Below, one piece after another: positions 2,898 to 47,058 of a stretch of 64,000 nucleotides of DNA. How positions within the stretch are numbered: position 1 is the first letter of the stretch; each line of letters starts with the position of its first letter. A model generated the notes under the pieces. That model saw nothing but the letters and a program-made list of their open reading frames with translations. It searched no databases and had not been told where the DNA came from. The translations under genes and the position numbers were made by a program. This stretch comes from an uncultured Acidobacteriota bacterium. GTDB taxonomy: Bacteria > Acidobacteriota > Terriglobia > Acidiferrales > UBA7541. The stretch is from assembly GCA_963795005.1 (NCBI GenBank), contig CAWCGE010000016.1:1314-65313 (forward strand). The letters are read 5' to 3'.

Positions 2898-3578
2898 TCA
2901 CACCGGCTCGGGTTTCAGAGTCGCGCTGATGTGCGCGAGACGCCCGTGAGCGAGCTCAATCCGCCGGTCCGCAAGGCAGCCGATGGATGGGGCGTGCGTG
3001 ACCATCAAGATGGTGTGGCCTTCCCGATGCATTTCGCGCAGAAGCTTGAGCACGATTTGTTCGTTCATCTCGTCGAGGTTACCGGTCGGCTCGTCCGCCA
3101 GAACCAGCCTTGGATGATTGATCAGGGCACGCGCGACGGCCACGCGCTGCTGCTCGCCGCCGGAAAGCTGCGAAGGAAGGTGTTCAGCGCGGTCGCCCAG
3201 TCCGACGCGCTCGAGAGATTGGCGCGCTTCTTTTTCATCCGTAGTACTGTGAAAATATTGCGCCAGCATCACGTTCTCCAGCGCCGTGAGGTAGGACACC
3301 AAATGAAACTGCTGGAATACGAAGCCAACCTTTTCGGCGCGGAAACGCGTGAGCCCAGCCTCATCCAGGCGCGCAACATCGGTGCCAGCCACGATTGCCC
3401 GGCCGGAAGTCGGGGTATCAAGCCCGCCAAGAATATTGATCAGCGTGGTCTTGCCCGAGCCCGATGGACCCATGATGGCGATCCATTCGCCTTCGTCGAT
3501 GCGCAGCGAAACGTCGTCGAGGGCGCGCACGCTGCCAAATACCTTGCGCAGATTATTGATCTCAACCACCGTGGCCAC
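2898..3578 (-). CDS. ABC transporter ATP-binding protein (MacB/LolD-type)
   Basis: The protein has Walker [10 protein letters not shown], signature [15 protein letters not shown] and Walker [13 protein letters not shown]. It is the last gene of the FTR1/FtsX operon. Confidence 0.9.
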
Positions 3579-3584
3579 GATTCC

Positions 3585-4730
3585 CTACTCTCCCCGCAAG
3601 ATGACGGCTGGCTTCACGTTCCCTAATGTGCGCAACGGAAGTGCGCCCGCCAGGGCTACCACGATCATCAATCCGATCGTCACCGGAAAAATTTCCCAGC
3701 GTGGCGAGATCGCGGCGCCAAACACGCGCAACCCCATCCAGTAGGAAAGTGCGACTCCGAGGATCGCCCCGAAAAGTCCGCCAACGGCGCCCAGCACGCC
3801 CACCTCGACCAAAAACAATCCAACGATGCGCGAAATGGAACCGCCCAGCGACTTCATCAGCCCGACGTCCTTGCGGCGTTCCATAGCCAACGCGGCCATG
3901 GTACCGAGTACGCACAGCGCCGTCAGAACCAGGATCAGCACCACCATCGAAAAAATGAGAAGCTGGATGCGGTCTAGCAACGCGCCCTCGACTTCAGTCA
4001 CCTGACGCATGGGCCGCACCTGCACTCCCGCGCGAACGGCGTTGGTCAGACGCGCGGTATATTCTGCGACGGTCCTGGCCGCGCCACTTACGCATATTTG
4101 CACCAAGCTGATCTGCCCGTCCAAATTCGCCAGCGCTTGCACGGTTCGCAGGCTGGCGAAGACCTGGTCATCGTCGGTGCCCCCCGCATCCACGATTCCT
4201 GCGACCGTGAATTGGGCGGAGCGATTCAAATAATCGAGCTTGAGCACTCCGCCCGGCGCAAGATGCAATTGGCGCGCCACGGCGCGGCCGATCAGGCAGT
4301 GCGAGTCATCTTCGCGCGACGAGATCCAACTCCCTTGCAGCTTCCACGTCGGCTCGATTTTCTGCGCCTGATCCAGCCAGGTTCCGGCCACTACAACCGG
4401 TGTGCCTTGCGCGCGCGCGACGATATAGAGATACGGCGCTGCCGGAACCACTTCCGGTGATTCCAAACGCTCGAGCGGCGGAAGGACCTGGTCTTCTCGC
4501 ATCAGAGTGGGCGGTGCAGCGCCGTTCTCCGATGATGCGCCCGTCGCCGGCGAGATCACGATATTCGCGCCCAACGAGCGAAATTCTTGCGTCAACTTGC
4601 TCTGCACGCCGAGATCGAGATTCAGCAGGGCGGAAATCACCGCAGCTCCACTGACGATCGCGAGAATCGCGACTGCCAACCGGCCACGACTCCCGCGCAG
4701 AAGTTGAAACACCAGGCGCCAGAACATCAT
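3585..4730 (-). CDS. ABC transporter permease, FtsX/MacB-like
   Basis: I trimmed track ORF 3585..5231 to the internal MMFWRLVFQLLRGSRGRLAVAILAIVSGAAV... start. Its ATG at 4730 forms an ATGA overlap with the upstream stop at 4727-4729. The protein has an N-terminal TM helix, a periplasmic domain and a C-terminal FtsX 4-TM bundle. Confidence 0.85.
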   Translation of the reverse strand: MMFWRLVFQLLRGSRGRLAVAILAIVSGAAVISALLNLDLGVQSKLTQEFRSLGANIVISPATGASSENGAAPPTLMREDQVLPPLERLESPEVVPAAPYLYIVARAQGTPVVVAGTWLDQAQKIEPTWKLQGSWISSREDDSHCLIGRAVARQLHLAPGGVLKLDYLNRSAQFTVAGIVDAGGTDDDQVFASLRTVQALANLDGQISLVQICVSGAARTVAEYTARLTNAVRAGVQVRPMRQVTEVEGALLDRIQLLIFSMVVLILVLTALCVLGTMAALAMERRKDVGLMKSLGGSISRIVGLFLVEVGVLGAVGGLFGAILGVALSYWMGLRVFGAAISPRWEIFPVTIGLMIVVALAGALPLRTLGNVKPAVILRGE

Positions 4731-6055
4731 CCGCCCCTTAGAATCAGGGCCGCTTCGAAATGCGCCGCACGTCTCAGGGGAAGCAAACTTCCGGCAATCG
4801 CCACGATCGCCGCGAGACCAAGGACGATTGGTAGCAAGACCAAACGAGGCGATGCCGGACTTCCAAACACGCTCTCGCCCAATATCCGCGCCAAAGCCGT
4901 TCCGGCAACAAAACCCAGCGCGCCGCCGATGATCGCCAGCAGCACCTGTTCGGCAAGAAAAATTCCATTCACCAAAGCGTTGCTCGCGCCCAGAGCCTTC
5001 ATCACGCCGATTTCCGCTTGCCGCTCGAGTACGGTAGTCGCGGACGTGGCCGCGACCGCCAGCCCAGCGGCTATCAGTGCCGCAAGGGTAACAATCCAAA
5101 GCAGCGTGCCTACGCGGTCGAGAATGCGGCCCTCGGTTTCCGCCACTCGCCGAATGGTGTGGACATCGGTGCCGGGCAGCACTGTCTTGATCTGGTAGCT
5201 GATCGAGGAAATGTAGGGAGAACAGAACCAACGATCGTATTCCGTCGGAGTAAGCTGAATGCTCTGGTCACTCTGCGCGCGCTCGCCGCGTTCCGCCAGT
5301 GCGTCGGCGGGCTTGGTTAAAGCGCTGACGAAGAGTTGGCGAAATTCGCCGGGATGCCCAGATATTTTCTGTGCCACGGAAAGCGGCACGAGAATTCCCC
5401 TATCTTCGGCATCCTCCGCCGAGACAATGCCCGTCACCCTAAGCGGCGTCACGGTTGCGCCGGTTTTGTCGCCCGCCTCGCGGCCACTCACATAAATCGT
5501 CTGGCCCGGCTTAATATCGGGCATCTTCTGGGAAAATGCCGCTCCCAGGACGCATTCGCCAGCCCCATCCGCGAACCAGCGGCCTTCGATTTTCCACCAA
5601 GGATGCGTCACGCTCAGACCTGTCTTGAACGCGGTGCCATCCGGAACAGGCACCCCGTGTTCATACCAAGTTCCTATCAGGGTCACGGGAATGGGCGCTT
5701 GGTCTTGCCGGGTCGACATCGAGGCGGGAACATCAAGAAAGGGCGTGAAGCCCAAAATATTGTGGCGCCAGAATATCGTTTTCAATTTGCCGAGGTCAGC
5801 CTCTTTCAGATAGGCGCCTTCATCCACGGGGCGATAATCCACGCCGCCAATTTCCACGGGCAAGGTGTCCGATTCCGGCGTAACCAGCAGATTGGCGCCG
5901 AGGCTGCGGAATTCGCGTGCCAGCCGGTCGCCCACTTCGAGCGCGACGGTGAGCGTCGCCGTGGCCACCGCCATTCCGACGACCAGCGCGGCAGCGGTCA
6001 ATAATTTGCGGCGCGGATTGCGAACGAAAGATTCCCGTACCAGGCGAGCGAACAT
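4727..6055 (-). CDS. ABC transporter permease, FtsX/MacB-like
   Basis: The 442-aa protein starts MFARLVRESFVRNPRRKLLTAAALVVGMAV and contains a large periplasmic domain. The C-terminal FtsX region reads ...EIGVMKALGASNALVNGIFLAEQ... Confidence 0.85.
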   Translation of the reverse strand: MFARLVRESFVRNPRRKLLTAAALVVGMAVATATLTVALEVGDRLAREFRSLGANLLVTPESDTLPVEIGGVDYRPVDEGAYLKEADLGKLKTIFWRHNILGFTPFLDVPASMSTRQDQAPIPVTLIGTWYEHGVPVPDGTAFKTGLSVTHPWWKIEGRWFADGAGECVLGAAFSQKMPDIKPGQTIYVSGREAGDKTGATVTPLRVTGIVSAEDAEDRGILVPLSVAQKISGHPGEFRQLFVSALTKPADALAERGERAQSDQSIQLTPTEYDRWFCSPYISSISYQIKTVLPGTDVHTIRRVAETEGRILDRVGTLLWIVTLAALIAAGLAVAATSATTVLERQAEIGVMKALGASNALVNGIFLAEQVLLAIIGGALGFVAGTALARILGESVFGSPASPRLVLLPIVLGLAAIVAIAGSLLPLRRAAHFEAALILRGG

Positions 6056-6059
6056 CGCG

Positions 6060-7322
6060 TCAGGAGTGAATCTTGGAGGCGGCGTCGCCCAGCGCCGAGA
6101 GGTCCACGATCACTTCGCCTCCTTCCACGCGGGACTTCACGCTGATGGGATTGCATCCGCCCGACTGGCCGATCGAGGGTATGTAGATGGACGCTCCGCA
6201 ATTCCGGCAGATGACGTTCTGGCCGTCCTGCCGGTAACCGGCCGTGCCGCAAATCTGGCAGGCATCCAGCGCTACCGCGTAGTCGCCGTTTTGCTTGTGA
6301 ATCACCAGAAAACGGATCACCGTGCCGTTCACGTCGGCCGTATAGAAGTGCAGGCTCGAATCGGTCAGCTCTGACAGCGGTATGCGGACATGGCTATCCT
6401 GGGCGATGAGCGTCTTGGCAGGCGAAGGCGCAGCAGCAACGCGCCCGTACACGTATTCTCCAGCGAATGAAATCACGACGGCGACGCACAAAATCGCTGC
6501 GGCAAAACTCCAGCCGCGCTGGCGCCGGAATTCGTGTTCTCGCATGCGCCGCTCGGCAGGGTTGGCCGCTTGGTCTGCGGCGGGCTGCTTCGCGCTGAAC
6601 CATTCGCGGAGGACCACCAGCGCCGCGGCGCCCAAAATCAAAACGAAAAAGAAGACTTCGTTGCGCACGATCGGGCCGATGGTGGACATCTCCGTCTTGC
6701 TCGAGGGAATCCACATTGCTTCGCTCAGTTCATGGACGCCGGTGAGCGCAAGCTGAAAAGCGACCACCATCAAAATGGCGCTGGTGGCCTTGAAAAACCG
6801 GCGGAGCGGAATCCGCAACGTACCTTGAAAAAAGAAGACCCCGACGGCGATCGCGATCGCAATGCCGATAGCCGTGCCGATCCAGACCTGCACGCCCGCG
6901 CTGGAAAGTTCCACGGCGCGCAGGACCAGCACCAATTCGGCGCCTTCGCGCACCACCATCAGAAAGACGAACAGGCCGATACCCCATCCCGCGGCGCGCG
7001 TCGATTTCTGCGCGTAGGCCTCCACACGCTGCTCGATTTCTTTTTTCAGATGCCGCGCCACGCGGTTCATCCAAACAATCATCGAGATCACGAGGACCGA
7101 AGCGACCAGCATCAGCAGGCCCTCGAAGCCATCCTCGCTGACCTGCCAGCGGTCCAGCAGCACGGCGGCCGCAACGCTCGCCACGGAAGCGAAAATCACG
7201 CCAGCCCAAACGTAACTAGCAAGTGCACGGCGACCCGTGCGTTTCAAATACACGAGGACGATGCCGACGACGAGGGCAGCTTCGACACCTTCACGGAGAG
7301 CCAGGAGCAGCGCAGAGAGCAT
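6060..7322 (-). CDS. Fusion protein with an N-terminal FTR1-family iron permease and a C-terminal DUF2318 Cys-rich membrane domain
   Basis: Two REGxE motifs are present (LREGVEAALV near the N-terminus and VREGAELVLV) within a polytopic N-terminal half. The C-terminal roughly 150 aa contains ...LDACQICGTAGYRQDGQNVICRNCGASIYIPSIGQSGGCNPISV..., which matches the DUF2318 pattern (CxxC...CxxC...GGCNP). Confidence 0.8.
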   Translation of the reverse strand: MLSALLLALREGVEAALVVGIVLVYLKRTGRRALASYVWAGVIFASVASVAAAVLLDRWQVSEDGFEGLLMLVASVLVISMIVWMNRVARHLKKEIEQRVEAYAQKSTRAAGWGIGLFVFLMVVREGAELVLVLRAVELSSAGVQVWIGTAIGIAIAIAVGVFFFQGTLRIPLRRFFKATSAILMVVAFQLALTGVHELSEAMWIPSSKTEMSTIGPIVRNEVFFFVLILGAAALVVLREWFSAKQPAADQAANPAERRMREHEFRRQRGWSFAAAILCVAVVISFAGEYVYGRVAAAPSPAKTLIAQDSHVRIPLSELTDSSLHFYTADVNGTVIRFLVIHKQNGDYAVALDACQICGTAGYRQDGQNVICRNCGASIYIPSIGQSGGCNPISVKSRVEGGEVIVDLSALGDAASKIHS

Positions 7323-7331
7323 ATCTTTCTC

Positions 7332-7363
7332 AGTTGTAAGTCATTTACAACTGGAAATTCCAG
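7332..7363. promoter_or_regulatory. Two adjacent perfect palindromes in the divergent control region
   Basis: The first palindrome is AGTTGTAA-gtcat-TTACAACT (7332-7352). It overlaps CTGGAA-A-TTCCAG (7351-7363) by two bases. The first lies only 10 nt upstream of the FTR1-DUF2318 start codon at 7322. Confidence 0.5.
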
Positions 7364-7412
7364 TTTAGCCCTGCCTTGCTCTTAAATCAAGCGAATTCAC
7401 TGCGACAACACT

Positions 7413-10400
7413 ATGCTCACCTTTCACGGTAGAATAGCATCTTACAGTCGAATGACTTCCCTCCGCCATTGCTGGCACCGTTCCCTTAAACCCGCGGCAA
7501 CCTTACCGGGCCGGATCCTGATTGCCGCCTTGGCGGCGCTCCCTGCGTTTTTCTTTTCGCTCTTGACGCCGAACGTCTCGGTCGTAAACGCCTTCCCGCA
7601 TCCTCAAGACGAGCAATCGTCCTCGGCGCAGAAACAGATTCAAAATCCTCCAGCTACAACTAACATTTCGCCTCTAGAGCAGAAACTGCCGTCGCCTCCT
7701 GGTAAGGCCGACGTCAAGAAGGGCAAACAGGCTTATAAGCAGGGCCTCAAGCTGGAAGAGTCGGGCGATTGGCAGGCGGCCTACGATGGCTATTCCGAGG
7801 CCGTGGATTGGGACCCCAGCATTCGAGAGTATTGGGTGCGACAGGCCGTTGCGAAAGGCCACGTAGTGCAAATGAAGGTTGATCTGGCGGAGCGCGAGGC
7901 GGTGTCTGGCCGGCTCCTGGATGCGCTGCACGCCATGCGCGAGGCACGGGAGCTGGATCCATCGAACCGCACCGTCCAGGAGCGCCTGAGCGAACTGGAG
8001 GCTCTCGATCCAGCGCGCCTCAGGCAAGTCGCCGCCAGCCCTGGACTCGCGCCTGAAGTCCGGCTGGAGCACCGCCCCGGGACCCGATCCTTTGAACTGC
8101 GCGGCCAAACGCAGGGGGCGTATCAAGAAGTGGCCCAGAGATTCGGCGTCGAGGTTGCGTTTGATGTGGACCTGCGCAACGAGCCCGTGCGCCTCGACCT
8201 GAAGGACGTTGACTTTGCCACGGTCATGCGCGTCCTGGAGGAGGAGACGGGGACCTTTTGGAGGCCCCTCACCAAACACTTGTTCTTTGTGGCGCAAGAT
8301 ACGGCGCAGAAGCGCAAGGACTACGACGTTTCAATCGCTCGCACCGTGCTGTTCTCCGCTTCGGAAACAAACGAGCAAATGACCGAACTGTCGCGGATGG
8401 TCCGCGAAGTTGCCGGAATAACTCGAACGGACCTTGATTTGAAGAGCCACACGCTGACGATGCGCGCTTCTCCGCAAGCGATCGCCGTCGCCACCGGCAT
8501 CATTGAGGACCTGGAACAGCCGCCCGCCGAACTGATCCTGGAACTTGAAGTCCTTGAAGTGGATCGCAATCGCAACAGGGATTTGGGTATCACGGGACCG
8601 CAGACCGCGACGATTTACTCCATTCCATCGAACGCGCAGCAACTCGTGGCGGAAGGTGGTGCCGCGGCGCTCAACGCCTTGCTGGAACAAGTTTTTGGAT
8701 CGTCGTCATCGATCCCGGGCCTGTTCGCTTTCGGCGGAGGGAAGACGACTTTTTTGGGCACACTCCCAGGGGCTGCCGCCAGTTTTTCGAATATGCTCTC
8801 GACCGTGCGCACGGGCCACCGCGTTCTACTACGAGCCGAGGACGGCCTGCCGGCTTCCTTTTTTGTGGGTGAACGCTTTCCAGTTTCCCTGGCGCAGTAC
8901 TCTTCCAGCCTGGTCGGTAACGCCAATAGCACCGCTACCGGCACCCCCACGGTCTCCAGCGGCTCCGCCTCCAGTCTCCCCATCACAACCCTCGCGACCG
9001 GAACCAACCCTGACTTCGTGGTTACGGGCGACCTGAACAACGATAACTTTCAAGATATCGTCGCGGCAAATTTTACGGACGGAACCCTTTCGGTGTTCTT
9101 AGGCGCTGGCTTGGGTACCTTCGGCACTCCCAGCACGGTTCCTGTCGGCAAGGGACCGACATGGATCGCCACGGGAAACTTCAACGCCAAGACCAACACG
9201 AGCGGAATTATCGATCTCGCAGTTGCGAATCAGGTAGACAACACCGTCTCGATCCTGCTGGGAAACGGCGATGGAACCTTTGCGGTGGCGCCTTCCTCGC
9301 CACTTGTGCTGCCAAGTGGCGCAAGTCCCACTGCAATCGCGGTGGGAGACTTTAACAAAGATGGTTTCGCGGACTTGGCAGTGGTCAATATGACGGCCAA
9401 CACCGTAAGCATTTTCCTGGGCAACGGTGATGGCACCTTTAAGACGCCGACTACGGTGGTCACCGGCAGCGCGCCAACTTCGATTGTCGCCGAGGCATTC
9501 AATCCCAGCAATCCATCACTTATAGATTTGGCCGTGACGAACTCCGTTGACAACACGCTTGAGATCTTCATCGGCAATGGAGATGGCACATTTCAGAAAG
9601 GCGTCACCTACGCCACGGGCGTGACCCCGGTATATGTCGCATCCGCTGACGTCAATGTCGACGGCAATCTGGATTTGGTGGTGGCCGATAGTGGCGCGGC
9701 CACCGCCTCGAACACCGTAGGCAATAGTGTCTCGGTTTTCTTGGGCAATGGCGACGGCACGTTCATCCTGCCGGGCGGCACGAGGATGGACTTTCCCGCC
9801 GGAACAAATCCCACATCCATCGCCATCGCCGATTATAATCAAGACGGCCTGCTGGATCTCGCCGTCACGGCGACTGGAGACAACTCTTTCGCATTGCTGC
9901 TTGGCGCTGGTGGTGGCGCGTTTAACTCTCCGATTGAGGTGCCCGTAGGCACTACTCCGGATTCGGTCGCGACCGCCGATTTCAACGGCGACGGGCTGCC
10001 TGACCTCGCAATTTCGAATTTCGGCTCGAACAGCGTGTCGGTGATTCTCGATTCGTCGTCGCTTATTGGCCTTCTTTCCAGCAATGGAGTCGGCACGCAA
10101 TTCCCGGGCGCCGAATATATGGACATCGGGCTGAAGGTAAAGGCCACGCCTCGAGTTCATCCGGACGGCGACGTCTCACTGCAATTCGAGTTTACCCTCA
10201 GCAGCCTCGCTGCCAACAGCGTCAACAACATTCCGGTGGTCAACAATCAGGAAATCCATCAGACCGTGCGCGTGAGGATCGACCAAACCGCCGCGCTCGC
10301 AGCTTACCTCGCGCCGCAAAACAGCACTTCGCTGAATGGTTCGCCCGGGCTGGGCAGCTTGCCGCTCAACGGCATCATCGGCGGGACGACCACCACGCAG

Positions 10401-10718
10401 TATTCCGACACCGAGTTATTGATCCTGGTGACGCCGCGGATGGTGGAGATGGCGGCGCCGCGCAAGGACCACCTGATCTATGCAGGCCGGGGCCAGGTGG
10501 AAGGCCCCTCGTCGCTAGGGCCCACGATTCAAGAACGCCGTGGATTCCAGCTCCCTAATGCGCAGCAGCCGCGGCCAATCGAGACTCAGCCGGAGCCCCA
10601 GCCAGCCCCACAACCAACCCAGCCCCCGCAGCCGCAGCCTCCTGCGGAGCAGTCGCCCGCAGAACAAACGCCAGCGAACGCGCCTCCGCCACAAAATTAC
10701 AACCCGCAGCCGCAGTAG
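7413..10718 (+). CDS. Secretin-family outer-membrane protein with an N-terminal TPR-like region, an internal FG-GAP repeat propeller and a Pro/Gln-rich tail
   Basis: The start may be the second Met at 7452 (MTSLRHCWHRSLKPAATLPGRILIAALAALPAFFF, signal-like). Secretin N-domain and secretin-domain signatures are present: ELILELEVLEVDRNRNRDLGI, VLLRAEDGLPASFFVGERFPV, then, about 370 aa later, AEYMDIGLKVKATPRVHPDGDVSLQFEFTLSSL...ELLILVTPRMV. Seven D-x-N-x-D-G...LAV.N....SVFLGNGDGTF repeats lie between those two parts. Confidence 0.8.
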   Translation: MLTFHGRIASYSRMTSLRHCWHRSLKPAATLPGRILIAALAALPAFFFSLLTPNVSVVNAFPHPQDEQSSSAQKQIQNPPATTNISPLEQKLPSPPGKADVKKGKQAYKQGLKLEESGDWQAAYDGYSEAVDWDPSIREYWVRQAVAKGHVVQMKVDLAEREAVSGRLLDALHAMREARELDPSNRTVQERLSELEALDPARLRQVAASPGLAPEVRLEHRPGTRSFELRGQTQGAYQEVAQRFGVEVAFDVDLRNEPVRLDLKDVDFATVMRVLEEETGTFWRPLTKHLFFVAQDTAQKRKDYDVSIARTVLFSASETNEQMTELSRMVREVAGITRTDLDLKSHTLTMRASPQAIAVATGIIEDLEQPPAELILELEVLEVDRNRNRDLGITGPQTATIYSIPSNAQQLVAEGGAAALNALLEQVFGSSSSIPGLFAFGGGKTTFLGTLPGAAASFSNMLSTVRTGHRVLLRAEDGLPASFFVGERFPVSLAQYSSSLVGNANSTATGTPTVSSGSASSLPITTLATGTNPDFVVTGDLNNDNFQDIVAANFTDGTLSVFLGAGLGTFGTPSTVPVGKGPTWIATGNFNAKTNTSGIIDLAVANQVDNTVSILLGNGDGTFAVAPSSPLVLPSGASPTAIAVGDFNKDGFADLAVVNMTANTVSIFLGNGDGTFKTPTTVVTGSAPTSIVAEAFNPSNPSLIDLAVTNSVDNTLEIFIGNGDGTFQKGVTYATGVTPVYVASADVNVDGNLDLVVADSGAATASNTVGNSVSVFLGNGDGTFILPGGTRMDFPAGTNPTSIAIADYNQDGLLDLAVTATGDNSFALLLGAGGGAFNSPIEVPVGTTPDSVATADFNGDGLPDLAISNFGSNSVSVILDSSSLIGLLSSNGVGTQFPGAEYMDIGLKVKATPRVHPDGDVSLQFEFTLSSLAANSVNNIPVVNNQEIHQTVRVRIDQTAALAAYLAPQNSTSLNGSPGLGSLPLNGIIGGTTTTQYSDTELLILVTPRMVEMAAPRKDHLIYAGRGQVEGPSSLGPTIQERRGFQLPNAQQPRPIETQPEPQPAPQPTQPPQPQPPAEQSPAEQTPANAPPPQNYNPQPQ
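9020..10055 (+). repeat. Seven tandem FG-GAP/VCBS-type coding repeats inside the secretin gene
   Basis: The repeats are TGDLNNDNFQDIVAAN, TGNFNAKTNTSGIIDLAVAN, VGDFNKDGFADLAVVN, AEAFNPSNPSLIDLAVTN, SADVNVDGNLDLVVAD, IADYNQDGLLDLAVTA and TADFNGDGLPDLAISN. Most are followed by ...S(V/I)(F/L)LGNGDGTF. Confidence 0.8.
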
Positions 10719-20409: not shown

Positions 20410-23400
20410 CTAATTCGGCAGCGGCACCAGCAGCACGCGATTGTTCGTCGGATCCACTTGCACGGCCACGTTCAACCGGGGATCGATGGCCACCGAGTTC
20501 GGACCGATCACCAGCGACGCAGCCGGCATCAAGCCGCCCACGTCAATGATGTCGTGCACCTGCGGCGTCGGGCAGTTCGTCGCGCCGTTCGGATTCGGCG
20601 GACAAACATAGTCCAGGACCGAAAGCGTATTGCTGGCCGCGTTCGACGTCACCAGCGTGCTCGCATTGAAATTGTAGTCGAGCGATGTCGGGTTGATACC
20701 CGTGCTGAGTGTACCCAGGACGGCGCCCGTCAACGGATTCACGATGAGGATGTCATTCAGCGAACTGTCCACCACCAGAAAATCCTGGTTCGCTGCGTCA
20801 AAGACGACGCCCGTCGGAAGCTGCAGGTTGCTCACCTGCGGTATCGGTATGCCCCCACCCGGGAGGACCAGGAGATCGAGCGCGCTGGTCTGCGAAGCAA
20901 TTGTAACGGCTCCGATATTTTGAGACGGATCGTTGTTGGGAGCAGGGTCGATAGCAACGGCCAACGGTTGAAAGTCAATGGGCGATCCGTTGGAGACGAT
21001 CGTTGACGCGGTCGCCCCGGTCACGATAAACGTCCCGAGTGCTCCCTCGTTCGCGGGATTACCCCCTGAGCTGGGCGGAATCGTGTTGGTGACTGCGGCC
21101 AGAGCAGAGTCCTGATTCAGCGCCACCCCAATAGGCAGCGTTCCTCCCCCTATCGAAAGCGTTACGGGACTGTTGAAAACCCCGTTTAACCCTTTCTCGT
21201 CGAGAATCGTGACGTCGTTGCTTCCGTTATTCGCGACCACCGCCTGCCCGGTTCGCGCGAGGATCGCAACACCGTATGGCGTTGTTCCAGTGTTAAAGAA
21301 ACTCGGCGATTGCGGCGATATCAGCGAACCGTTCAACAGGTTCACCACCGAGATGTTGCCGCTGCTGGAATTCGTCACCACCGCCTGATCCAGATACGAG
21401 TCCACGGCCACACCCACGGGGCTCGTACCCACCGTCACAGGCTGGAACACGGTTAGATCGGTGACGTTCGAAATCGCTGCGCCATTTTGCACGTAGACAA
21501 TGTAACGTCGCGCCGTCGCCAAATCGGCTGCGGGAATCGCCGCCGTAACCTGCCGGCTGCTTATCGGCGTTGTAGGCACCGCGGTGCCGTCCAGGACCAC
21601 TTGCGAACTGCCGGTAAAACCGTTGCCAACAATGGAGAGGGTCACGCCGACTGCGGGGGTCTGAGCATATACAACGGACGGGCTGGATTCCAAAATCTGT
21701 AGCGGGTTCGGCGTTGTCGTTGCCAAGAGCACCACCGACACGGTGTTGTTCCCTTGATTCACCACGTAGGCAGTATTCGTCACCGCATTCACCGCCACTG
21801 CCTGCGGGTTGCTGAAGCCCGCAATCGTCTGCAGTACGATGCTATTTTTCAGGTCCACCACATACGCATTGTTCGCGGCTCCGTTCACCGCAATTCCAAT
21901 ATTCGCCAGTGGGTTCACAGCCGCAGCGACTAGCCCTGTCGGTGAGAATGTCCCACCCCCAGGCAGCGTGAACGAAGCTGAACTGACCGATTGATCGAGC
22001 AGACTGAACGTTGTCAGACTAGGCTCCGGGGTAGGCACGTCGATCGGGCCGTTTGGGTCGGTCAGTAATGCTTGGTGCGTTTCGCTGTTAATCCCGATTC
22101 CGCGCGTCGAGGTGGAAACCAGCACATTGCCGATCACCAGAGGAGTTCGTAGCACGTCCGTCGAGTTCGCACCCACCCCTCGATTGTGGCCAAGGTCTAC
22201 GATGGTAATGGCGCCCGCACCTCCCGGCGTGCTAATCGCCCAATTCAATCTCGGGTCGACCGCCACCTGAGGTTGCAGGCCGGTGCCGACCGTAGCGATC
22301 GTCCCGCTCACGGTTTGGACGTAGGTGGGCACCCCGCCCGAGAAATCGAGGATCACAGCAATGTTGGTGGATTGAAAAACCACCATCCCGCGATGAGTCA
22401 GGGGATTGATCGCAATCGCGTAGGGCACGGGTTGCGGATTTGGCGGCGTGTTCGGATTGGGCAACGGTAGCGTTGTTACCGCCAGCGTGGTGAGGTCAAT
22501 CACCGAAACCGAATTGTCTACGCTATTGGTGACAGCGGCGATGTGATCGCCCAGCGTTCCGATAGACGTGGTGATTTGATCGTCAATCGCGACGCTGGTC
22601 GGACTGTGGCCGACTGCCACCGGCGAACCGGCCACAGGTGTGTTCGTCGCCAGATTGATAATGCTGACTGTGTTGTCGCCCGTGTTAGCGATGACTGCCA
22701 CGTTTAGCGAAGGATCAATCGCGATGGCTTGAGGCGACGTTCCTACCGCAAAGCTCGATGCCACGGCGGTGGCGATATCCCCCGGCCCAGGCTCGACTGC
22801 AATATTCGCCGCCGACATCGCGGGATTCGGCGCCACAACGTCGCTATTCCGGACAATCAGCGGATAGAGACCCGGCGAAGACACGCACCCACCTGGTATC
22901 GTGACGCTCAATTGCTGGCTGCTGGTGAGCGCAGCGGCCGCGGTCACGCCATTGCATTGAACCCTGGTCTGCGGCGAGAAATAGCCGCCGACTACATTCA
23001 CACCCAGATTCGTTCCGCCCGATATCAGCGTGTCCGGCGTGATGGCCACCACAGCAGGGCGGGACGGCACCACCGTCAAACCCTGCGGTCCGGATAGTCC
23101 AGTCGAGACATCGCCGTTTTGCGCTTGCACCACCAGTTGCAAAAGCCCCGCGCTCGTTAGCGAGCTCGCAGGAATCGTGGCGCGCAACAGCGTTCCAGTT
23201 ATGAAGATTGTGGGTATCGCCTGGGCCGGGTTGCCCACCAGAACCACGTCGTTTGAATTAAAATTCGTTCCAGTGAGATAGACGTCTTGCTGCAGCGATC
23301 CTTCGCCGACCGTATTCGGCACTAGCGAAGTCAGTGTCGGAGCGCCCGCGGAGGAGATCGATACGGTCGCTGTCCCCTGCACCGCGGGATCGAATGCCGA

Positions 23401-24072
23401 AACCGCCGAGATCGTCACGGACCCAGGTGCGCCACTGACCGGCGCGAAATATTCGCCCGCAGTACAGGCCACCGTGATCTGCGAACTCGGGCAGATGTAG
23501 CCATCCGCCGCGGTGCCTCCCGCTGTTCCACCCACTTCCCAGGTGACATTCGTATTCGTTGTACCGGTCACGTTCGCGGTGAATTGGAAATGGTCGCCCG
23601 CGGCGATCGTCGCAGTGGCGGGTATGATGTTGACCTCGATGCCCGATTTGAGTGTCACGGTCGCAGCGCCGAAAGCCTGGGTGTCCACGGTGCTGGTGGC
23701 CACAATTAAGAACGGATTGGTCGCCGGGGCGGTTTTGGGCGCCGTATACAGGCCCCCCGGAGTGTTGTTCTGTCCGGTGGTAATGGTCCCGTATCCACTT
23801 GGCAATTGAGTCTGGCCGACTGTTGCCGGGCTGCAGGTTGTCGGCTGGACGTTGCTCGGCGTGGGAGGCAGGCAAATTTGCCAAGTGACCGTCGTGGTGG
23901 AAGACCCCGTTACGGTCGCCTGAAACTGAAACTGTGCGCCAAAAGGAACCGTTTCCGTAGGGGTGTTGATGGTGACGCCCACGGGCGTCGAGTTCCCGCC
24001 GCAGCCGGACAAGACTGCAAGCGCGCAAACGACAAACGCCGGCGCAGCCAACTTCAAGAGCTTATTGCCCAT
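20410..24072 (-). CDS. Giant lipoprotein with Ig-like and IPT/TIG domains plus two or more YVTN-type beta-propeller repeat blocks
   Basis: I trimmed track ORF 20410..24168 to MGNKLLKLAAPAFVVCALAVLSGCGG, which carries the lipobox LSGC and is preceded by GAGGGTGGAAGAA. Recurrent ...VG.SP.(A/G)(I/V)A(I/V)D....A(V/I)V(A/T)N.....VS(V/I)(I/V)(D/N)L... repeats are present. IPT-like segments such as VYLTGTNFNSNDVVLVG also occur. Confidence 0.8.
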   Translation of the reverse strand: MGNKLLKLAAPAFVVCALAVLSGCGGNSTPVGVTINTPTETVPFGAQFQFQATVTGSSTTTVTWQICLPPTPSNVQPTTCSPATVGQTQLPSGYGTITTGQNNTPGGLYTAPKTAPATNPFLIVATSTVDTQAFGAATVTLKSGIEVNIIPATATIAAGDHFQFTANVTGTTNTNVTWEVGGTAGGTAADGYICPSSQITVACTAGEYFAPVSGAPGSVTISAVSAFDPAVQGTATVSISSAGAPTLTSLVPNTVGEGSLQQDVYLTGTNFNSNDVVLVGNPAQAIPTIFITGTLLRATIPASSLTSAGLLQLVVQAQNGDVSTGLSGPQGLTVVPSRPAVVAITPDTLISGGTNLGVNVVGGYFSPQTRVQCNGVTAAAALTSSQQLSVTIPGGCVSSPGLYPLIVRNSDVVAPNPAMSAANIAVEPGPGDIATAVASSFAVGTSPQAIAIDPSLNVAVIANTGDNTVSIINLATNTPVAGSPVAVGHSPTSVAIDDQITTSIGTLGDHIAAVTNSVDNSVSVIDLTTLAVTTLPLPNPNTPPNPQPVPYAIAINPLTHRGMVVFQSTNIAVILDFSGGVPTYVQTVSGTIATVGTGLQPQVAVDPRLNWAISTPGGAGAITIVDLGHNRGVGANSTDVLRTPLVIGNVLVSTSTRGIGINSETHQALLTDPNGPIDVPTPEPSLTTFSLLDQSVSSASFTLPGGGTFSPTGLVAAAVNPLANIGIAVNGAANNAYVVDLKNSIVLQTIAGFSNPQAVAVNAVTNTAYVVNQGNNTVSVVLLATTTPNPLQILESSPSVVYAQTPAVGVTLSIVGNGFTGSSQVVLDGTAVPTTPISSRQVTAAIPAADLATARRYIVYVQNGAAISNVTDLTVFQPVTVGTSPVGVAVDSYLDQAVVTNSSSGNISVVNLLNGSLISPQSPSFFNTGTTPYGVAILARTGQAVVANNGSNDVTILDEKGLNGVFNSPVTLSIGGGTLPIGVALNQDSALAAVTNTIPPSSGGNPANEGALGTFIVTGATASTIVSNGSPIDFQPLAVAIDPAPNNDPSQNIGAVTIASQTSALDLLVLPGGGIPIPQVSNLQLPTGVVFDAANQDFLVVDSSLNDILIVNPLTGAVLGTLSTGINPTSLDYNFNASTLVTSNAASNTLSVLDYVCPPNPNGATNCPTPQVHDIIDVGGLMPAASLVIGPNSVAIDPRLNVAVQVDPTNNRVLLVPLPN

Positions 24073-24179
24073 TTCTTCCACCCTCTCTGCTGAATTCATC
24101 GCGCACTGCAATCCGTCCAGCGCGTCATCGGTCGTCGCGTCGTTATAGCTCGAGATCTGCCAACTCAACCGTTCGATCT

Positions 24180-27068
24180 TTAGAACGTCTTACCCACCGT
24201 AAACCGGAAGGTATGCTGCGGCTCGAGCAAGTTGGCCGGAATATGCTGGGTGTTAGTATTAATGATCGTTTGCAACTCCGGCGCAATCTGCGTCTCCAGG
24301 ACGCCCGGAGGCAGAGCATTTTTGACAGCGTCACTCAGATAGTAGCCGCCGCTCAAACCGTTAATGGTCTGATCCAGCCGCAAATAATTGTACGCATAAT
24401 AAACGCGAAATGGCGCGTTGACGATCGGCAATATCACGTCCAGCTCGATTCCCGCCGAGGTGTGTGGCCGGAAATTCGTTCCTCCTACGATCGGAAGATT
24501 GCTCGCAACCTTCAAATTCGGAAAATCCGGGTTGGGATATTGCTGCTGATAGACGGTCACCGCCGCGGGGTCTAGCGCCAGCTGTGATTTTCGCAGAATG
24601 CCATTCACGCCGATGTCGTTGAAGAAAGTGAGTGTGACGGGACCCGCGATCGGGATGCGGTATTCAAAGTTGGCAACGTTCTGAAAATCGCCGCCCGGCC
24701 GCGTGGGGAAAAATTGAATCATGGGTACGTTGATGACCTGCTGCAGGGGCTTTCCTTGTTGATTCAAAATGGTTGGATTCACGTACGGCACGGCCTGGCT
24801 GGTTGCCTCCGGGATTTCCACGAAGGGCGCGATCGTATAAAAATCAAAACCGCGCACATCGTTTTCGCCGCCCAGATAGAACCGGCTGTAAGGCGGAATG
24901 TTTTTCCCGCCGTAGCCCGTGATCATTCCGGTCTGGAATTTCAAACCGATGACGTTGCGGCGTTTATTGACTGGATGGAAGTACGTAGTCACGAAAGAGT
25001 TCGTGATGGTGTTGACGTTGCCCTGGAGCGGCCCGCCCTCGAATCCCAGTCCGTAGTAAAAGCTCTTGCCGCTGGTCGGGTTTTGCGGATTATTTACCGA
25101 GCTGTAGGAGATGGTCGGCGTGATTTTGCTGGAGTCGATTCCGTTCAGCGCCGAGGGTCCCGCCAAGCCGGTAAACTTGATGCTGTCGAACAATAATTGC
25201 GCAGATGTACTGAACGTCTGAATATTCGTGGTGGAATAGCCGTAGGTCAGGCCGATGCGCGTAAAGGAAAGCTTCCGCAGCGGATAGCTAGCAAAAACCG
25301 TCAGGCCCTTCGTGTTGGTCGTGTAATTTTCTTCCAAAGCGGGGTTCAGCGCTACCTGCTGGCCGTAGAAAATGCCGAGCTGTTTCGCCTGGTTGTAGTC
25401 GAACTTGGTCGAAAAAATTGTAAAACCCGTTGAAATCGGCCGGTCGAAAAGGTATGGCTCGGTAAATCCAAAGCGAATGTCGCGCTGGAAGCTGCCGATC
25501 TGCGCGGACAGTGACAGAGTTTCGCCCAGGCCCAGGAAATTATTCGTGGTGTAGGAGCCGCCGATGAAGGTGCCGGCGATGCCGCTCACGCCGCCATTGA
25601 AGCTGATGGATTGCTTGCCTTTCTCCTTGAGCTTCAGCTTGATGTCCACCGTGCCGGCCTTCACGTTGCGTTTCAGTTCCGCGTTTTCCGGTTTGATCGT
25701 GTCGAAATAATTCAACTGATTCAAACGCAGCAAGCTGAGTTCCCAGCGTCGATTGTCGAATACCTGTCCTTCGTCGAGAAGCAGTTCGCGGCGGATAACT
25801 TTATCGCGCGTCGTGGTGTTTCCGGAAAACTCGATGCGCCGCACGAAGAATTGCTTTTGCTGGTCAAACTCCATGGTCAGATTCACAATCTTCTTCGTGT
25901 CATCAATATCCGACAGCGGCGTGGCCACGAAATCAATGTAGCCATACCCGCCGTACAGCTTCTTGTAGTTGTCCAGCGCCTTGCGGATTTTATCCGCTGC
26001 GAAAATGTCGCCTTGCTTCAGCGGAAACACGTTCGCCAGGAATTCCGGCTTGAAAACCAGCCCCTGATCAGGATCGGCGCTGCGGAAATTTAGCTTGCCC
26101 ATGCGGTACTGTTCGCCTTCTTCAATGCTGATCGTAATATCGGCGCGCTTGCCGTTCTTCGAGCCGATCACCGGCCATGGGCCGGGGATCCCGCTGCGAA
26201 CGTCATCCGTGATCTTCACCACCGGATCGCTCAAGTTCACTTTGAAATACCCGTGGTCCTGATAGATGCCGCGAACGCCAACCCCTAAATCCTCGTCCAG
26301 CTTGGCCTTGTCGTAGGTCTTGCTCAGCACCGGAATTTCCGTGATATAGAGCGGAATCGCATAGGGCCGGTCATTGCGCATCGAGCGGATGAGTTTGCGA
26401 TTGGAAAAAGCCTTGGCGCCGACGAACTTGATATCTCCGACCTTTACCTTCGGGCCTTCATCAATATTGAAGACCAATTTCACAGCATTGGTGGCGGCGA
26501 TGCGCTCGTAGGTGGGCTTCACCGTGGCAAACTGCCGGCCATGTTCGGCGAGCAGTGCCTTGATCACCACTTCCGCGCGCTTGATCTTGGTGGGATCGAA
26601 CTGGCTTTCCACCGAGAGGCCCACCTTCTTGTCCTTGAACGCGTCCAGGATGTCAGACTCGGTGATTGATTTGTTGCCCTTGTACTCGATGCGCCGGATG
26701 ATCGGACGCTCTTGCACGTAGAAAACGAGAATTTTTGCGTTGGGCTGGTCGGGGCTGTCTTCTACTTCGAGGCGAATATCTTCGAAGAATTGCGTGTTCC
26801 ACAGCGCCTGAAAATCGCGCCGCACTGCTTCTTCATTATAAGGATCGCCCGGCCGCGAGAAAATCCGGGCCAAAAGCGTGTCGCGCTGGATGCGCCGGTT
26901 GCCGATAAACTCGATTCGCTCGATGACGTATGGTGGGCCGTTGCCTTCCTGCCCGCCCTGAGACTGTTGAGCCGCAAGGATTTGCGCGCAGGGATACGCG
27001 AACAAAGACACACCGGCGAGAAATTGGAATAAACGCAGAAAAATTTTCCTGCAGGCGGCCATGGTCAA
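24180..27068 (-). CDS. bamA: Outer membrane protein assembly factor BamA
   Basis: The 962-aa protein has POTRA repeats (YVIERIEFIGNRRIQRDTLLARIFSRPGDPYNEEAVRRDFQALWNTQFFEDIRLEV...). The C-terminal barrel ends ...HTFRFTVGKTF. Confidence 0.93.
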   Translation of the reverse strand: MTMAACRKIFLRLFQFLAGVSLFAYPCAQILAAQQSQGGQEGNGPPYVIERIEFIGNRRIQRDTLLARIFSRPGDPYNEEAVRRDFQALWNTQFFEDIRLEVEDSPDQPNAKILVFYVQERPIIRRIEYKGNKSITESDILDAFKDKKVGLSVESQFDPTKIKRAEVVIKALLAEHGRQFATVKPTYERIAATNAVKLVFNIDEGPKVKVGDIKFVGAKAFSNRKLIRSMRNDRPYAIPLYITEIPVLSKTYDKAKLDEDLGVGVRGIYQDHGYFKVNLSDPVVKITDDVRSGIPGPWPVIGSKNGKRADITISIEEGEQYRMGKLNFRSADPDQGLVFKPEFLANVFPLKQGDIFAADKIRKALDNYKKLYGGYGYIDFVATPLSDIDDTKKIVNLTMEFDQQKQFFVRRIEFSGNTTTRDKVIRRELLLDEGQVFDNRRWELSLLRLNQLNYFDTIKPENAELKRNVKAGTVDIKLKLKEKGKQSISFNGGVSGIAGTFIGGSYTTNNFLGLGETLSLSAQIGSFQRDIRFGFTEPYLFDRPISTGFTIFSTKFDYNQAKQLGIFYGQQVALNPALEENYTTNTKGLTVFASYPLRKLSFTRIGLTYGYSTTNIQTFSTSAQLLFDSIKFTGLAGPSALNGIDSSKITPTISYSSVNNPQNPTSGKSFYYGLGFEGGPLQGNVNTITNSFVTTYFHPVNKRRNVIGLKFQTGMITGYGGKNIPPYSRFYLGGENDVRGFDFYTIAPFVEIPEATSQAVPYVNPTILNQQGKPLQQVINVPMIQFFPTRPGGDFQNVANFEYRIPIAGPVTLTFFNDIGVNGILRKSQLALDPAAVTVYQQQYPNPDFPNLKVASNLPIVGGTNFRPHTSAGIELDVILPIVNAPFRVYYAYNYLRLDQTINGLSGGYYLSDAVKNALPPGVLETQIAPELQTIINTNTQHIPANLLEPQHTFRFTVGKTF

Positions 27069-34672: not shown

Positions 34673-35317
34673 GTGGCCCGAACGAGACGAATCGAAACTG
34701 GGGAGATGCCGGAGGCGGATGCGATCCGGCTCGCCCAGCAGGGCGATGCAGCGGCCTTTGAGCGACTCTACCGGCTTCATAACCGACGTGTATATTCTCT
34801 ATGCCTGCGAATGGTCGGTAACACGGCTGAGGCGGAGGATCTTACTCAGGAAGCGTTTCTGCAACTCTTCCGCAAGATTGCCACGTTCCGCGGAGAGTCG
34901 GCGTTTTCGACCTGGCTGCACCGTCTGGCAGTAAATGTCGTGCTGATGAAGTTGCGCAAGAAATCCGGCACGGAGAGTTCACTGGAAGAAATTACCGAGC
35001 CCGATGAGGAATCGGGAGGGCCGCGACGAGACTTTGGCGGACCGGATTTGCGGCTCAGCGGTTCGATTGACCGGGTGAACCTGCAGCGCGCTGTCGAGCA
35101 ACTGCCGCCGGGTTACAAGTCGGTGTTCGTCCTGCACGATGTGCAGGGTTATGAGCACAACGAGATTGCGGAAATCATGGGCTGCTCGATCGGCAATTCG
35201 AAATCGCAATTACACAAGGCGCGCATGCGGCTTCGCGAGTTGCTTCACGAAGCGCTCCGTGCCAAGGCCCGCGAAGATCGCAAAGCTGCCAGCGCCGAAG
35301 CTGGCGGCGAGGACTGA
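34673..35317 (+). CDS. ECF-type RNA polymerase sigma factor (module 1)
   Basis: The start codon is GTG. Region 2 reads [63 protein letters not shown]. Region 4 reads [39 protein letters not shown]. Confidence 0.9.
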
Positions 35318-35322
35318 ACGAA

Positions 35323-36009
35323 ATGGCCATCACCAAGTGCGAGCGGTTTCTCGATCATCTCGAGCCCTGGATGGAAGGTGAGCGGCGCGCCGACATCCAG
35401 GCTCACTTTCGTAACTGTCCTCAGTGCCAAGCAATCCTAAACGATCTGGAGGCTATCCGCGCAGAGGCCCGCACTTGGAGCGCCTCAGAGACAGAAGCGC
35501 CCGAACACGTTTGGGTGTCGTTGCGCGAACAACTTGAACAGGAAGGCCTGATCCGGGATGCGGATGCGCATTCACCTTCGCGCGAGCGTGGGCGGGTAGC
35601 GGCAAGCCGAGGCTGGCTACGTGGTTTATTCGGCGGAATACCCCGCCCGGTACTCGCCGGCGGATACCTCGCCGCGTTAATAGCCGTCGCGTTTGCTCTG
35701 AGCGGTCCCATCCATAAGAAGGTGAACGAAGCAAAATGGCTCGAAGGCACGCGAATTGCTACCTCACCCCTGAGAGCGCAACTGAACAGCGCCGAACAAA
35801 ACTCGATTTCTTTTGCCAATTCGAATTCGGATGTTTCGGCTTCCTTACATCAGAACCTCGCCATCGTTGACAACTACATCGCTTTGTGTGAAAAAAGCGT
35901 ACGCGAAGAACCCCAGAACGAACTAGCACGGGATTACCTCTATGAAGCGTACCGGCAAAAAGCGGACTTGCTGGCGCAGATGAGCGAACGCGGAGAAAAC
36001 GTCCAATGA
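35323..36009 (+). CDS. zf-HC2 anti-sigma factor (module 1)
   Basis: The protein contains CERFLDHLEPWMEGE...AHFRNCPQCQAILNDL (the H-x3-C-x2-C motif) and one central TM helix (VLAGGYLAALIAVAFAL). Confidence 0.8.
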   Translation: MAITKCERFLDHLEPWMEGERRADIQAHFRNCPQCQAILNDLEAIRAEARTWSASETEAPEHVWVSLREQLEQEGLIRDADAHSPSRERGRVAASRGWLRGLFGGIPRPVLAGGYLAALIAVAFALSGPIHKKVNEAKWLEGTRIATSPLRAQLNSAEQNSISFANSNSDVSASLHQNLAIVDNYIALCEKSVREEPQNELARDYLYEAYRQKADLLAQMSERGENVQ

Positions 36010-41955: not shown

Positions 41956-41957
41956 GT

Positions 41958-43025: not shown

Positions 43026-43049
43026 TCTTTCCGTCCTCGCTGCCCGCGA

Positions 43050-43847: not shown

Positions 43848-43985
43848 CTGCTCCAAAGCACACCTTCTCGCTGAGACGCATGCGCGCTTAGGATGCTGTA
43901 AACACAGCATTTAAGAACACCACGAGCGAAGGGCCTGTAGCCTCGTAGCGTTGCGCAACTCGGCAAGCGGGTAGATTGCAAGGTG

Positions 43986-47029: not shown

Positions 47030-47058
47030 GGTCGGCGCATCCTATCCGCTCAGGTATA

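Follow-up and report, generated by a model that had tools for sequence, protein, structure and literature searches.

Gate 1 of a secretin is, to our knowledge, a short, conserved, pore-sealing loop in every member of the superfamily with a solved structure. In the cryo-electron microscopy structure of f1 pIV, the loop is bounded by two conserved hinge glycines, G267 and G297, and the closed gate is stabilized by R293 (PMC8563730). In Pseudomonas aeruginosa, the propeller of PilY1 sits in the outer cavity of the secretin PilQ, blocking the channel and exposed to the outside (PMC11525922). Here we describe a gene, at 7413..10718 (+) of a 64-kb stretch of DNA from an uncultured Acidobacteriota bacterium (contig CAWCGE010000016.1; “the window” below means this whole stretch), for a secretin with a tetratricopeptide repeat (TPR) region, N-type domains, and a seven-blade FG-GAP beta-propeller placed in Gate 1 itself. 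It comes from a lineage, Ca. Acidoferrales (UBA7541), that has been described as abundant in acidic soils and as a candidate for iron cycling (PMC7980381). The protein belongs to a conserved, previously undescribed secretin design, which is probably a plugged display ring and not a conduit.

The gene is one long open reading frame (ORF) with a 1,101-aa product. From N- to C-terminus, it has a signal-like region, a TPR-like domain, two N-type domains, a secretin domain interrupted by the propeller, and a proline- and glutamine-rich (P/Q-rich) tail. We place high confidence in this anatomy, and low confidence in any function assigned to it.

The Interrupted Secretin Domain

The Pfam secretin profile (PF00263) matches the native protein with E = 1.2e-21 and 77.4 bits (gathering threshold 27.5), the match being limited to aa 896-1011, which correspond to profile positions 51-168 of 169; a contiguous secretin domain is not a feature of the native protein. 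When aa 498-889 were excised in silico, the match widened to profile positions 17-168 and the score rose from 77.4 to 89.1 bits: positions 17-50 sit about 400 residues upstream, and align only once this segment is removed. Two unsplit relatives, P0154 and P0138 (see below), match the profile at 16-169 and 20-166, respectively. The excised construct also aligns in one piece, from the N3 domain to the C-terminus, with residues 295-573 of P. aeruginosa XcpQ (5wln; E = 3e-12), and likewise unbroken with E. coli GspD (5wq7). In these alignments to solved secretins “vllraedglpasffVGerfPv,” from before the insert, pairs with “ll-tlDnqkaeilVGqnvPf,” and “aeymdiGlkvkatPrv,” from after it, with “verkdiGvslkvtPhi.” The C-terminal part taken separately aligns to an RcpA-like protein (8jvb), PilQ (6ve2), and GspD; these, with XcpQ 5wln and GspD 5wq7, are the best sequence matches among solved structures.

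An AlphaFold2 monomer model was built from a 47-sequence family alignment (36 split and 11 unsplit members), with a mean predicted local distance difference test score (pLDDT) of 72. A Foldseek search of the PDB with this model gave secretin matches to PilQ (6w6m), PulD (6hcg), and InvG (6q14 and 8co1), which span 817-843 alignment columns and therefore bridge the insert.

The original prediction, made from the sequence alone, had placed the repeats inside the secretin domain, rather than between the N-domains and an intact secretin domain, and both the excision and the alignments to solved secretins bear this out. The check proposed with it was whether the repeats divide the PF00263 match into two segments. 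Profile positions 17-50 were gained on excision, but in the native protein the match is limited to the C-terminal part, and the N-terminal flank alone (aa 201-510) has no PF00263 match in a Pfam search. That this flank is secretin is deduced from the score gain on excision, the unbroken alignments to solved secretins, the colinear unsplit homologues, and the Foldseek matches that bridge the insert.

The N-terminal part of the domain, delimited from the XcpQ and GspD alignments after excision, covers aa 371-492 (8523..8888, +) and runs from the first barrel strand through a helical/lip region to the ascending Gate 1 strand, FFVG(486)ERFPVSLAQ. The C-terminal part, from PF00263 and the structure alignments, covers aa 900-1012 (10110..10448, +), with the descending Gate 1 strand AEYMDIG(906), inner-barrel strands, Gate 2 (NNIPVVNNQE), and the final strand ELLILVTPRMV. 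The secretin strands (373-384, 465-492, and 900-1012) were modeled with pLDDT 45-83.

The Insert Lies Between the Gate 1 Hinge Glycines

Throughout the 47-sequence alignment, G486, P490, P898, D904, G906, T912, P941, P978, and P1008 are invariant. In pIV, G267 lies in VGQNVPF and G297 in ERQNVG; the residue numbers given for this protein (G267, N269, G275-Q289, R293, N295, and G297; PMC8563730) fit that sequence. By motif and alignment, G486 (in FFVGERFPV) and G906 (in EYMDIG) are the equivalents of G267 and G297, respectively.

The hinge glycines are separated by 419 residues in the window protein and by 385-478 in the 36 split members of the alignment (the window protein included), against 28-44 in the 11 unsplit relatives, 29 in pIV, and about 29-44 in canonical secretins generally. 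The insert therefore replaces the pore-sealing tip of Gate 1. These alignments place the insertion at the very end of the Gate 1 hairpin, with one hinge on either side. The position of the pIV gate-stabilizing arginine, R293, is occupied by tyrosine (Y902), as it is in nearly the whole clade, split and unsplit.

The rest of the secretin plan is familiar. Like GspD/XcpQ, PilQ, RcpA/CpaC, InvG, and f1 pIV, the window protein has the Gate 1 stems (VGxxxP...ExxxxG) with both hinges, a Gate 2, and the (V/I)TPR strand at the end, and a putative N3-like ring domain is modeled directly upstream of the barrel, as in canonical secretins, with an N0-like domain before that. Unlike them, it has a propeller at the pore-sealing tip, a tyrosine for the Gate 1 arginine, an N-terminal TPR domain, and a P/Q-rich tail in place of the S-domain, and no ATPase, platform, pilin, or pilotin gene adjoins it.

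By score and motifs the protein is classed as a secretin superfamily member outside all named subfamilies. No NCBIfam model reached its cut-off; the partial, sub-threshold matches to secretin subfamilies all fall on the C-terminal secretin part, and membership was rejected for GspD (TIGR02517; 68.8 vs. a cut-off of 351), PilQ (TIGR02515; 53.8 vs. 284), SctC (TIGR02516; 39.8 vs. 238), MshL (TIGR02519; 30.5 vs. 250), and HofQ (29 vs. 554). The Amuc_1098 family (NF042912), a type IV pilus outer membrane protein, is likewise a secretin with an N-terminal TPR-like region; membership there was rejected as well (29.5 bits vs. 750), only the TPR segment (aa 99-204) matching.

The Propeller and Its Linkers

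The inserted propeller occupies aa 524-878 (8982..10046, +). Pfam finds FG-GAP_3 (PF13517) in six stretches (E = 1.4e-43, 147.8 bits vs. a threshold of 26.9) and FG-GAP (PF01839) with E = 6.3e-19 (67.9 bits vs. 22.1), and seven repeat units are legible in the sequence. In the model this region is all beta, with 28 strands at pLDDT 90-97, the count expected of seven blades of four. Its Foldseek matches in the PDB are seven-blade propellers as well: ITFG2 in KICSTOR (an FG-GAP protein; target-normalized template modeling score 0.62-0.66), the LGI1 EPTP propeller, and integrin alphaIIb (0.49 to the headpiece). The closed seven-blade propeller that had been proposed from the repeats is thus recovered by repeat units, strand count, and fold comparison alike. 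To judge from the strand count, the N-terminal strand at 524-528 appears to complete blade 7 (a velcro closure); both ends of the domain would therefore lie side by side, as insertion into a loop requires.

The domain has a mass of 35.3 kDa, a pI of 4.05, and no cysteine. A motif search found loops of the DxDxDGxxD type in five blades, at aa 540, 646, 746, 807, and 856; by sequence these are of the Ca2+-binding type. The same repeat signature, DxDxDGxxD loops, and seven four-stranded blades are found in the integrin-alpha/FG-GAP propellers (ITFG2, integrin alphaIIb), which are N-terminal or stand-alone, whereas the propeller here is within a loop of a beta-barrel membrane protein. The nearest functional analogue is the PilY1 cork of PilQ, also a seven-blade propeller of the Ca2+-binding type at the gate and outer cavity of a secretin. 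PilY1, however, is a separate protein acting in trans, present at one per 14-mer, delivered by the pilus and minor pilins, and not homologous to FG-GAP, while here the propeller is covalently part of the gate loop of every subunit, with no pilus genes nearby.

Two linkers join the propeller to the Gate 1 strands. Linker 1 (aa 493-523; 8889..8981, +), recognized by composition and from the model, has 31 residues, of which 71% are S, T, G, A, or N; it is predicted to be disordered, with pLDDT below 50 for aa 493-520, and it is mostly a gap in the unsplit relatives in the 47-sequence alignment. Linker 2 (aa 879-899; 10047..10109, +), delimited by model and alignment, has 21 residues, with pLDDT below 50 for aa 890-900, and is poorly conserved (identity 0.22 among distant split members).

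N-Terminal Domains and Tail

The signal-like N-terminus of the original prediction is present in aa 1-60 (7413..7592, +), where a basic stretch is followed by the hydrophobic RILIAALAALPAFFFSLL and then VNA|F, with a helix modeled at 36-47. The mature part of the protein has no cysteine, and therefore it is not a lipoprotein. M14 may be the true start; the N-terminus differs among relatives.

A TPR-like helical domain (aa 96-200; 7698..8012, +) is assigned from the model, which has six helices over aa 98-197 with pLDDT about 90, and from relatives. It is followed by two alpha/beta N-type domains (aa about 215-370; 8055..8522, +), assigned from model secondary structure and the XcpQ alignment, both with pLDDT 74-93. 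The one at aa 225-295 is N0-like (b-a-b-b-a-b-b), and the one at aa 308-367 is N3-like (b-a-b-b-a) and aligns to N3 of XcpQ 5wln. Both kinds of domain had been proposed from the sequence, and the model and relatives agree, but in the window protein the corresponding Pfam matches are sub-threshold: TPR_2 and TPR_14 rise above threshold in the unsplit relative P0154, and for Secretin_N, with its cut-off of 28.2 bits, the window protein reaches only 13 bits and its relatives 23-28. The NCBIfam Amuc_1098 model matches partially over the same TPR segment, with E = 2e-7.

Beyond the barrel (10449..10715, +) is a segment with a conserved IYAGRG motif (aa 1013-1045), in which Y1023, A1024, and G1025 are invariant among split members, and then a disordered tail (aa 1046-1101), 61% P+Q, consistent with the tail of about 55 aa first described; pLDDT is below 50 from aa 1024 on.

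Relatives, Conservation, and Origin

More than 120 clusters at 60-100% identity carry the same Pfam set, under the database names “FG-GAP-like repeat-containing protein,” “hypothetical,” or generic GspD/HofQ/CpaC. An exhaustive profile-free search with the propeller-deleted construct as query added about 30 more clusters (defined at 50% identity) with proteins of 950-1,340 aa, matching in two or three pieces (36-53% identity), and many unsplit proteins of about 600 aa, matching in one piece across the TPR, the N-domains, and the whole secretin domain (28-41%). In a scan of 185,579 species-level genomes, with a 13-sequence alignment as query, a relative was found in 517; the best 80 of these are all full-length, with 47-89% identity. 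Of these 80, 76 are labeled as Acidobacteriota metagenome-assembled genomes (MAGs; Ca. Acidiferrales/Acidoferrum, Terriglobia), and the other four carry Verrucomicrobiia, Dormiibacterota, or Cybelea labels. Full-text searches of the open-access literature and a comparison with curated family models turned up no description of a secretin with a folded domain in Gate 1; together with the generic database names and the lack of an NCBIfam model at cut-off, this upholds the initial impression that the architecture was undescribed.

The nearest relatives are the unsplit TPR-N-secretins (P0154, P0138, P0170; from Terriglobales and Ca. Koribacter MAGs), uncharacterized proteins of about 600-620 aa named “type II and III secretion system protein” or “hypothetical.” They share with the split proteins a colinear TPR, N-domains, and both parts of the secretin domain (26-41% identity), as well as the Gate 1 tyrosine and orphan status; they differ in having a Gate 1 loop of 28-44 residues, no propeller, and no P/Q-rich tail. 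In a neighbor-joining tree of 508 non-propeller columns, computed without support values, the split members form one clade, with the unsplit P0154 as its sister.

P0138 (621 aa, with a 40-residue Gate 1) is unsplit as well, but in the same tree, again without support values, it is placed inside the split clade; it may represent a secondary loss of the propeller.

Among distant split members, identity is 0.43 in the propeller and 0.44-0.48 in the barrel parts. From these values all parts are judged to be under comparable purifying selection, with the hinge glycines, Gate 2, and terminal strands kept. The ancestry lies in a clade of TPR-N-secretins of about 600 aa that were already orphans in Acidobacteria, and the sequence comparisons indicate that a complete propeller of the Ca2+ type was inserted into the Gate 1 tip in one Ca. 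Acidoferrales ancestor.

Some family members carry further domains. Pfam finds three Big_2 domains nested in the propeller of P0143 and P0157, and two He_PIG domains in that of P0137, and P0123 (1,336 aa) has extra repeat segments within its propeller, without a Pfam match, which we read as Ig-like. The nested Big_2 and He_PIG domains are a second level of insertion within the Gate 1 propeller, in proteins of up to 1,336 aa. P0157 was also considered as an unsplit secretin with a C-terminal extension; this was rejected, since its sequence and Pfam matches are those of a truncated split member with nested Big_2 domains. In P0211 (locus L087, 10001-13169), a TPR-secretin that is more distantly related, the secretin domain is unsplit and a cohesin domain is found at the C-terminus; two N_methyl (pilin-like) genes directly follow it.

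Genomic Neighborhood

The secretin gene stands alone, in the window and in relatives. Divergent from it is an operon (2898..7322, −), annotated from Pfam matches in syntenic loci, with genes for an FTR1/FtrD-like iron permease (6060-7322, −), two MacB_PCD/FtsX permeases (about 3585-6004, −), and an ATP-binding cassette (ABC) ATPase (2898-3584, −), and then a GBBH-like gene. Downstream and convergent are truB-rbfA-DUF503-infB-nusA-rimP. This arrangement is found in 71-79 of 86 loci, the neighboring genes being more conserved than the secretin; the FTR1 operon is beside the secretin in 75-78 of the 86. The unsplit P0154 occupies the same slot, between the FTR1 operon and truB, although with an FTR1 identity of only 49%; the ATPase at its locus (L005) carries a Fe_dep_repr_C domain. 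The locus of P0138 (L004) has no FTR1 operon upstream. A functional link between the secretin and the FTR1 operon is possible.

The FTR1 permease of the window is fused to a FtrD-like Cys-rich domain. In its FTR1-MacB_PCD/FtsX-ABC composition the operon resembles the cFtr1/P19-associated cj1661-1663 genes of Campylobacter.

The secretin gene and the FTR1 operon share a divergent intergenic region of 90 bp (7323..7412), which may be a shared operator/promoter, to judge from two sequence elements. At 7331-7353 there is a perfect 9-5-9 dyad, CAGTTGTAA-GTCAT-TTACAACTG, the arms of which covary in related loci (e.g., TTGATA-N5-TATCAA), and at 7384-7399 there is a conserved AAATCAAGCGAATTCA; AAATCAAGC is present at 36 of the 80 related loci, in most cases immediately upstream of where the secretin gene starts. 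Readings of the dyad as a Fur box or DtxR box were rejected, as it resembles neither consensus, and it is left unassigned.

No ATPase, platform, (pseudo)pilin, or pilotin gene of a type II secretion system (T2SS), type IV pilus (T4P), Tad, or type III secretion system (T3SS) was found in the 64-kb window, as judged from a Pfam scan at 40-64 kb, synteny with annotated loci at 1-18 kb, and ORFs read by eye at 18-40 kb. The last of these regions has genes for a peptidase S41, a 1,253-aa repeat protein, BamA-like and ClpC-like proteins, LolD, LolC/E, LysS, an extracytoplasmic function (ECF) sigma/anti-sigma pair, shikimate kinase, and a PDZ protein. Nor were such partner genes found in the ±10 kb around the gene in about 80 related genomes, or next to the unsplit Terriglobales relatives; the orphan status first noted for the window holds at these loci too. 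The Terriglobales TPR-secretins, of about 615 aa, are likewise orphans, in unrelated contexts.

Two of these Terriglobales genes (L089, L090) adjoin suf Fe-S genes, with an Rrf2 regulator, or ccsA-hemA-hemC-hemD. These suf and hem neighbors, like the FTR1 operon of the window, may belong to a recurring iron theme, although chance could also account for it.

Elsewhere in the window, the 1,253-aa protein (20410-24168, −) has a lipobox-like LSGCGG and many “VAV..N.A.V.N...NTVSVI” repeats, with no Pfam match at E<=1e-5; it is encoded directly upstream of the BamA-like gene (24180-27068), and locus L001 has a 1,220-aa counterpart, also without Pfam matches. There are two modules of an ECF sigma factor, a zf-HC2 anti-sigma factor, and a DUF4097 “toastrack” protein (34673-36896, +, and 40558-43910, −), the second of which includes a HEAT-repeat anti-sigma-like protein. 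A 599-aa protein (46963-48759, +) ends in a TonB_C domain and contains a spacer, rich in Pro, Ala, Gly, and Ser, of very great length.

Possible Roles

The size of the insert limits where it can be. Assuming the usual double barrel of 12-15 subunits, the propellers would have a solid volume of about 510,000-640,000 Å3 (35.3 kDa × 1.21 Å3/Da × 12-15). In pIV the inner barrel is 90 Å across and the particle 96 Å tall, and Gate 1 pivots upward and outward on opening (PMC8563730), so that the whole lumen is about 610,000 Å3 (π × 45^2 × 96). As the propellers roughly equal or exceed this volume, they would form a ring or crown outside the barrel. The “ring of propellers on one face” of the original prediction is thus soundly reasoned, conditional on a canonical oligomer. 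Fully extended, linker 1 would reach up to about 105 Å and linker 2 about 70 Å, and either opening of the barrel could be reached. The 24-30 flexible linker strands would start at the pore center and fill much of an opening of 65-75 Å, which makes a conduit role for pili or folded proteins unlikely.

We therefore favor, at what we judge to be about an even chance, a role for the protein as a repurposed barrel, a self-contained anchor displaying a multivalent, Ca2+-dependent binding ring. The channel would be permanently occupied by linkers, with the propellers in a ring outside the barrel that would bind a ligand in a Ca2+-dependent way, possibly in connection with the iron-uptake operon of FTR1. 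We lean slightly toward the cell surface, and away from the periplasm, as the side on which the ring would lie, because of the extracellular-type modules, the outward-pointing Gate 1 loops of an opened secretin, and the position of PilY1 in the outer cavity of PilQ. FG-GAP, Big_2, and He_PIG are modules typical of extracellular or surface proteins.

Several points weigh against this reading. The model is of a monomer, and its barrel parts are only moderately confident (pLDDT 45-83), as is to be expected when one subunit of an oligomeric barrel is modeled by itself. We know of no mechanism by which gate-attached domains of about 35 kDa could cross the outer membrane, and a periplasmic location needs no translocation. 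The retained hinge glycines and Gate 2 could mean that the gate still opens for a substrate; the two pilin-like genes beside the distant P0211 make a filament partner encoded elsewhere possible; and the position of the unsplit P0138 inside the split clade, in an unbootstrapped neighbor-joining tree, may mean that the propeller is dispensable.

Some of these points belong equally to a more conventional explanation, which we consider unlikely: the protein may still work as the conduit of a T4P-, T2SS-, or Tad-like machine whose genes are elsewhere in the genome, with the propellers as an accessory collar or cap that swings aside, a cis version of the PilY1 cork or of a Vibrio-type cap gate. The barrel core is intact, the hinge glycines are invariant, Gate 2 is conserved, and the N0-like and N3-like domains, which normally contact inner-membrane partners, are both seen in the model; the pilin genes after P0211 and the precedent of a propeller plugging a secretin (PilY1 in PilQ; PMC11525922) fit as well. 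Yet partner genes are missing from the 64 kb, from the ±10 kb surveyed in about 80 related genomes, and from the surroundings of unsplit relatives; the scores are far under every equivalog cut-off (GspD, PilQ, SctC, MshL); and the linker strands, if they are where we suppose, would obstruct the pore. Of quite another kind would be an assembly or annotation artifact or a decaying gene, in which a chimeric contig or a gene fusion would have joined an FG-GAP protein to secretin fragments. Only the unusual architecture itself suggests it, and we give it next to no credence: the same in-frame architecture and junctions recur in >120 clusters and in 80 MAGs obtained independently, closed chromosomes among them, purifying selection is comparable in all parts, and the junction residues are invariant. 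The artifact or chimera was rejected on this evidence.

That the propellers are periplasmic, lying below the gate through the N-domain rings, where they might close or control a channel for small solutes or bind a partner in the periplasm, seems to us a rather improbable account, but a serious rival and a simple one: its topology is the simplest available, with no folded domain to be translocated. The candidate partner would be the FTR1/FtrD permease with its MacB-type ABC system; the protein would then be the outer-membrane component of an envelope pathway related to iron. The occurrence of the FTR1-FtsX-FtsX-ABC operon at 75-78 of the 86 loci and also next to P0154, the unsplit sister, the shared intergenic region with its conserved dyad and motif, the Fe_dep_repr_C domain of the L005 ATPase, the proposal that the lineage cycles iron (PMC7980381), and the suf or hem genes beside other unsplit relatives all point this way. 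On the other hand, the synteny lies within one order and the neighbors are more conserved than the secretin, so that it may be merely inherited gene order; P0138 is without the FTR1 operon, and the Terriglobales relatives are in unrelated contexts. The FG-GAP, Big_2, and He_PIG domains are also more in keeping with the surface, and by the geometry above the vestibule would be too small for the propellers.

The anchored display ring that we favor has a bolder form, which we put forward as speculation with the odds well against it. In this form the homo-oligomeric barrel would thread its own 12-15 Gate 1 insertions outward through its own pore, becoming a self-displaying secretin with a crown of integrin-like propellers; these would fold outside, perhaps driven by Ca2+, and in some species Ig-like domains would extend the crown. 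If this were true, the result would be a ring that adheres to or captures minerals, polymers, or cells with high avidity, and a new way to build a surface organelle, without an ATPase, a pilus, or separate cargo.

This family keeps the secretin barrel and hinges and yet conserves a 35-kDa folded domain at Gate 1, which challenges the view of secretins as conduits only. It could provide a natural scaffold on which domains are displayed multivalently, either on the outer membrane or beneath it, and the unsplit sister proteins offer a natural control for comparison. The split secretin appears to be near-universal and syntenic in Ca. Acidoferrales, an uncultured order abundant in acidic soils (PMC7980381), and what it does may be relevant to the ways in which these bacteria attach to, or use, minerals or polymers.

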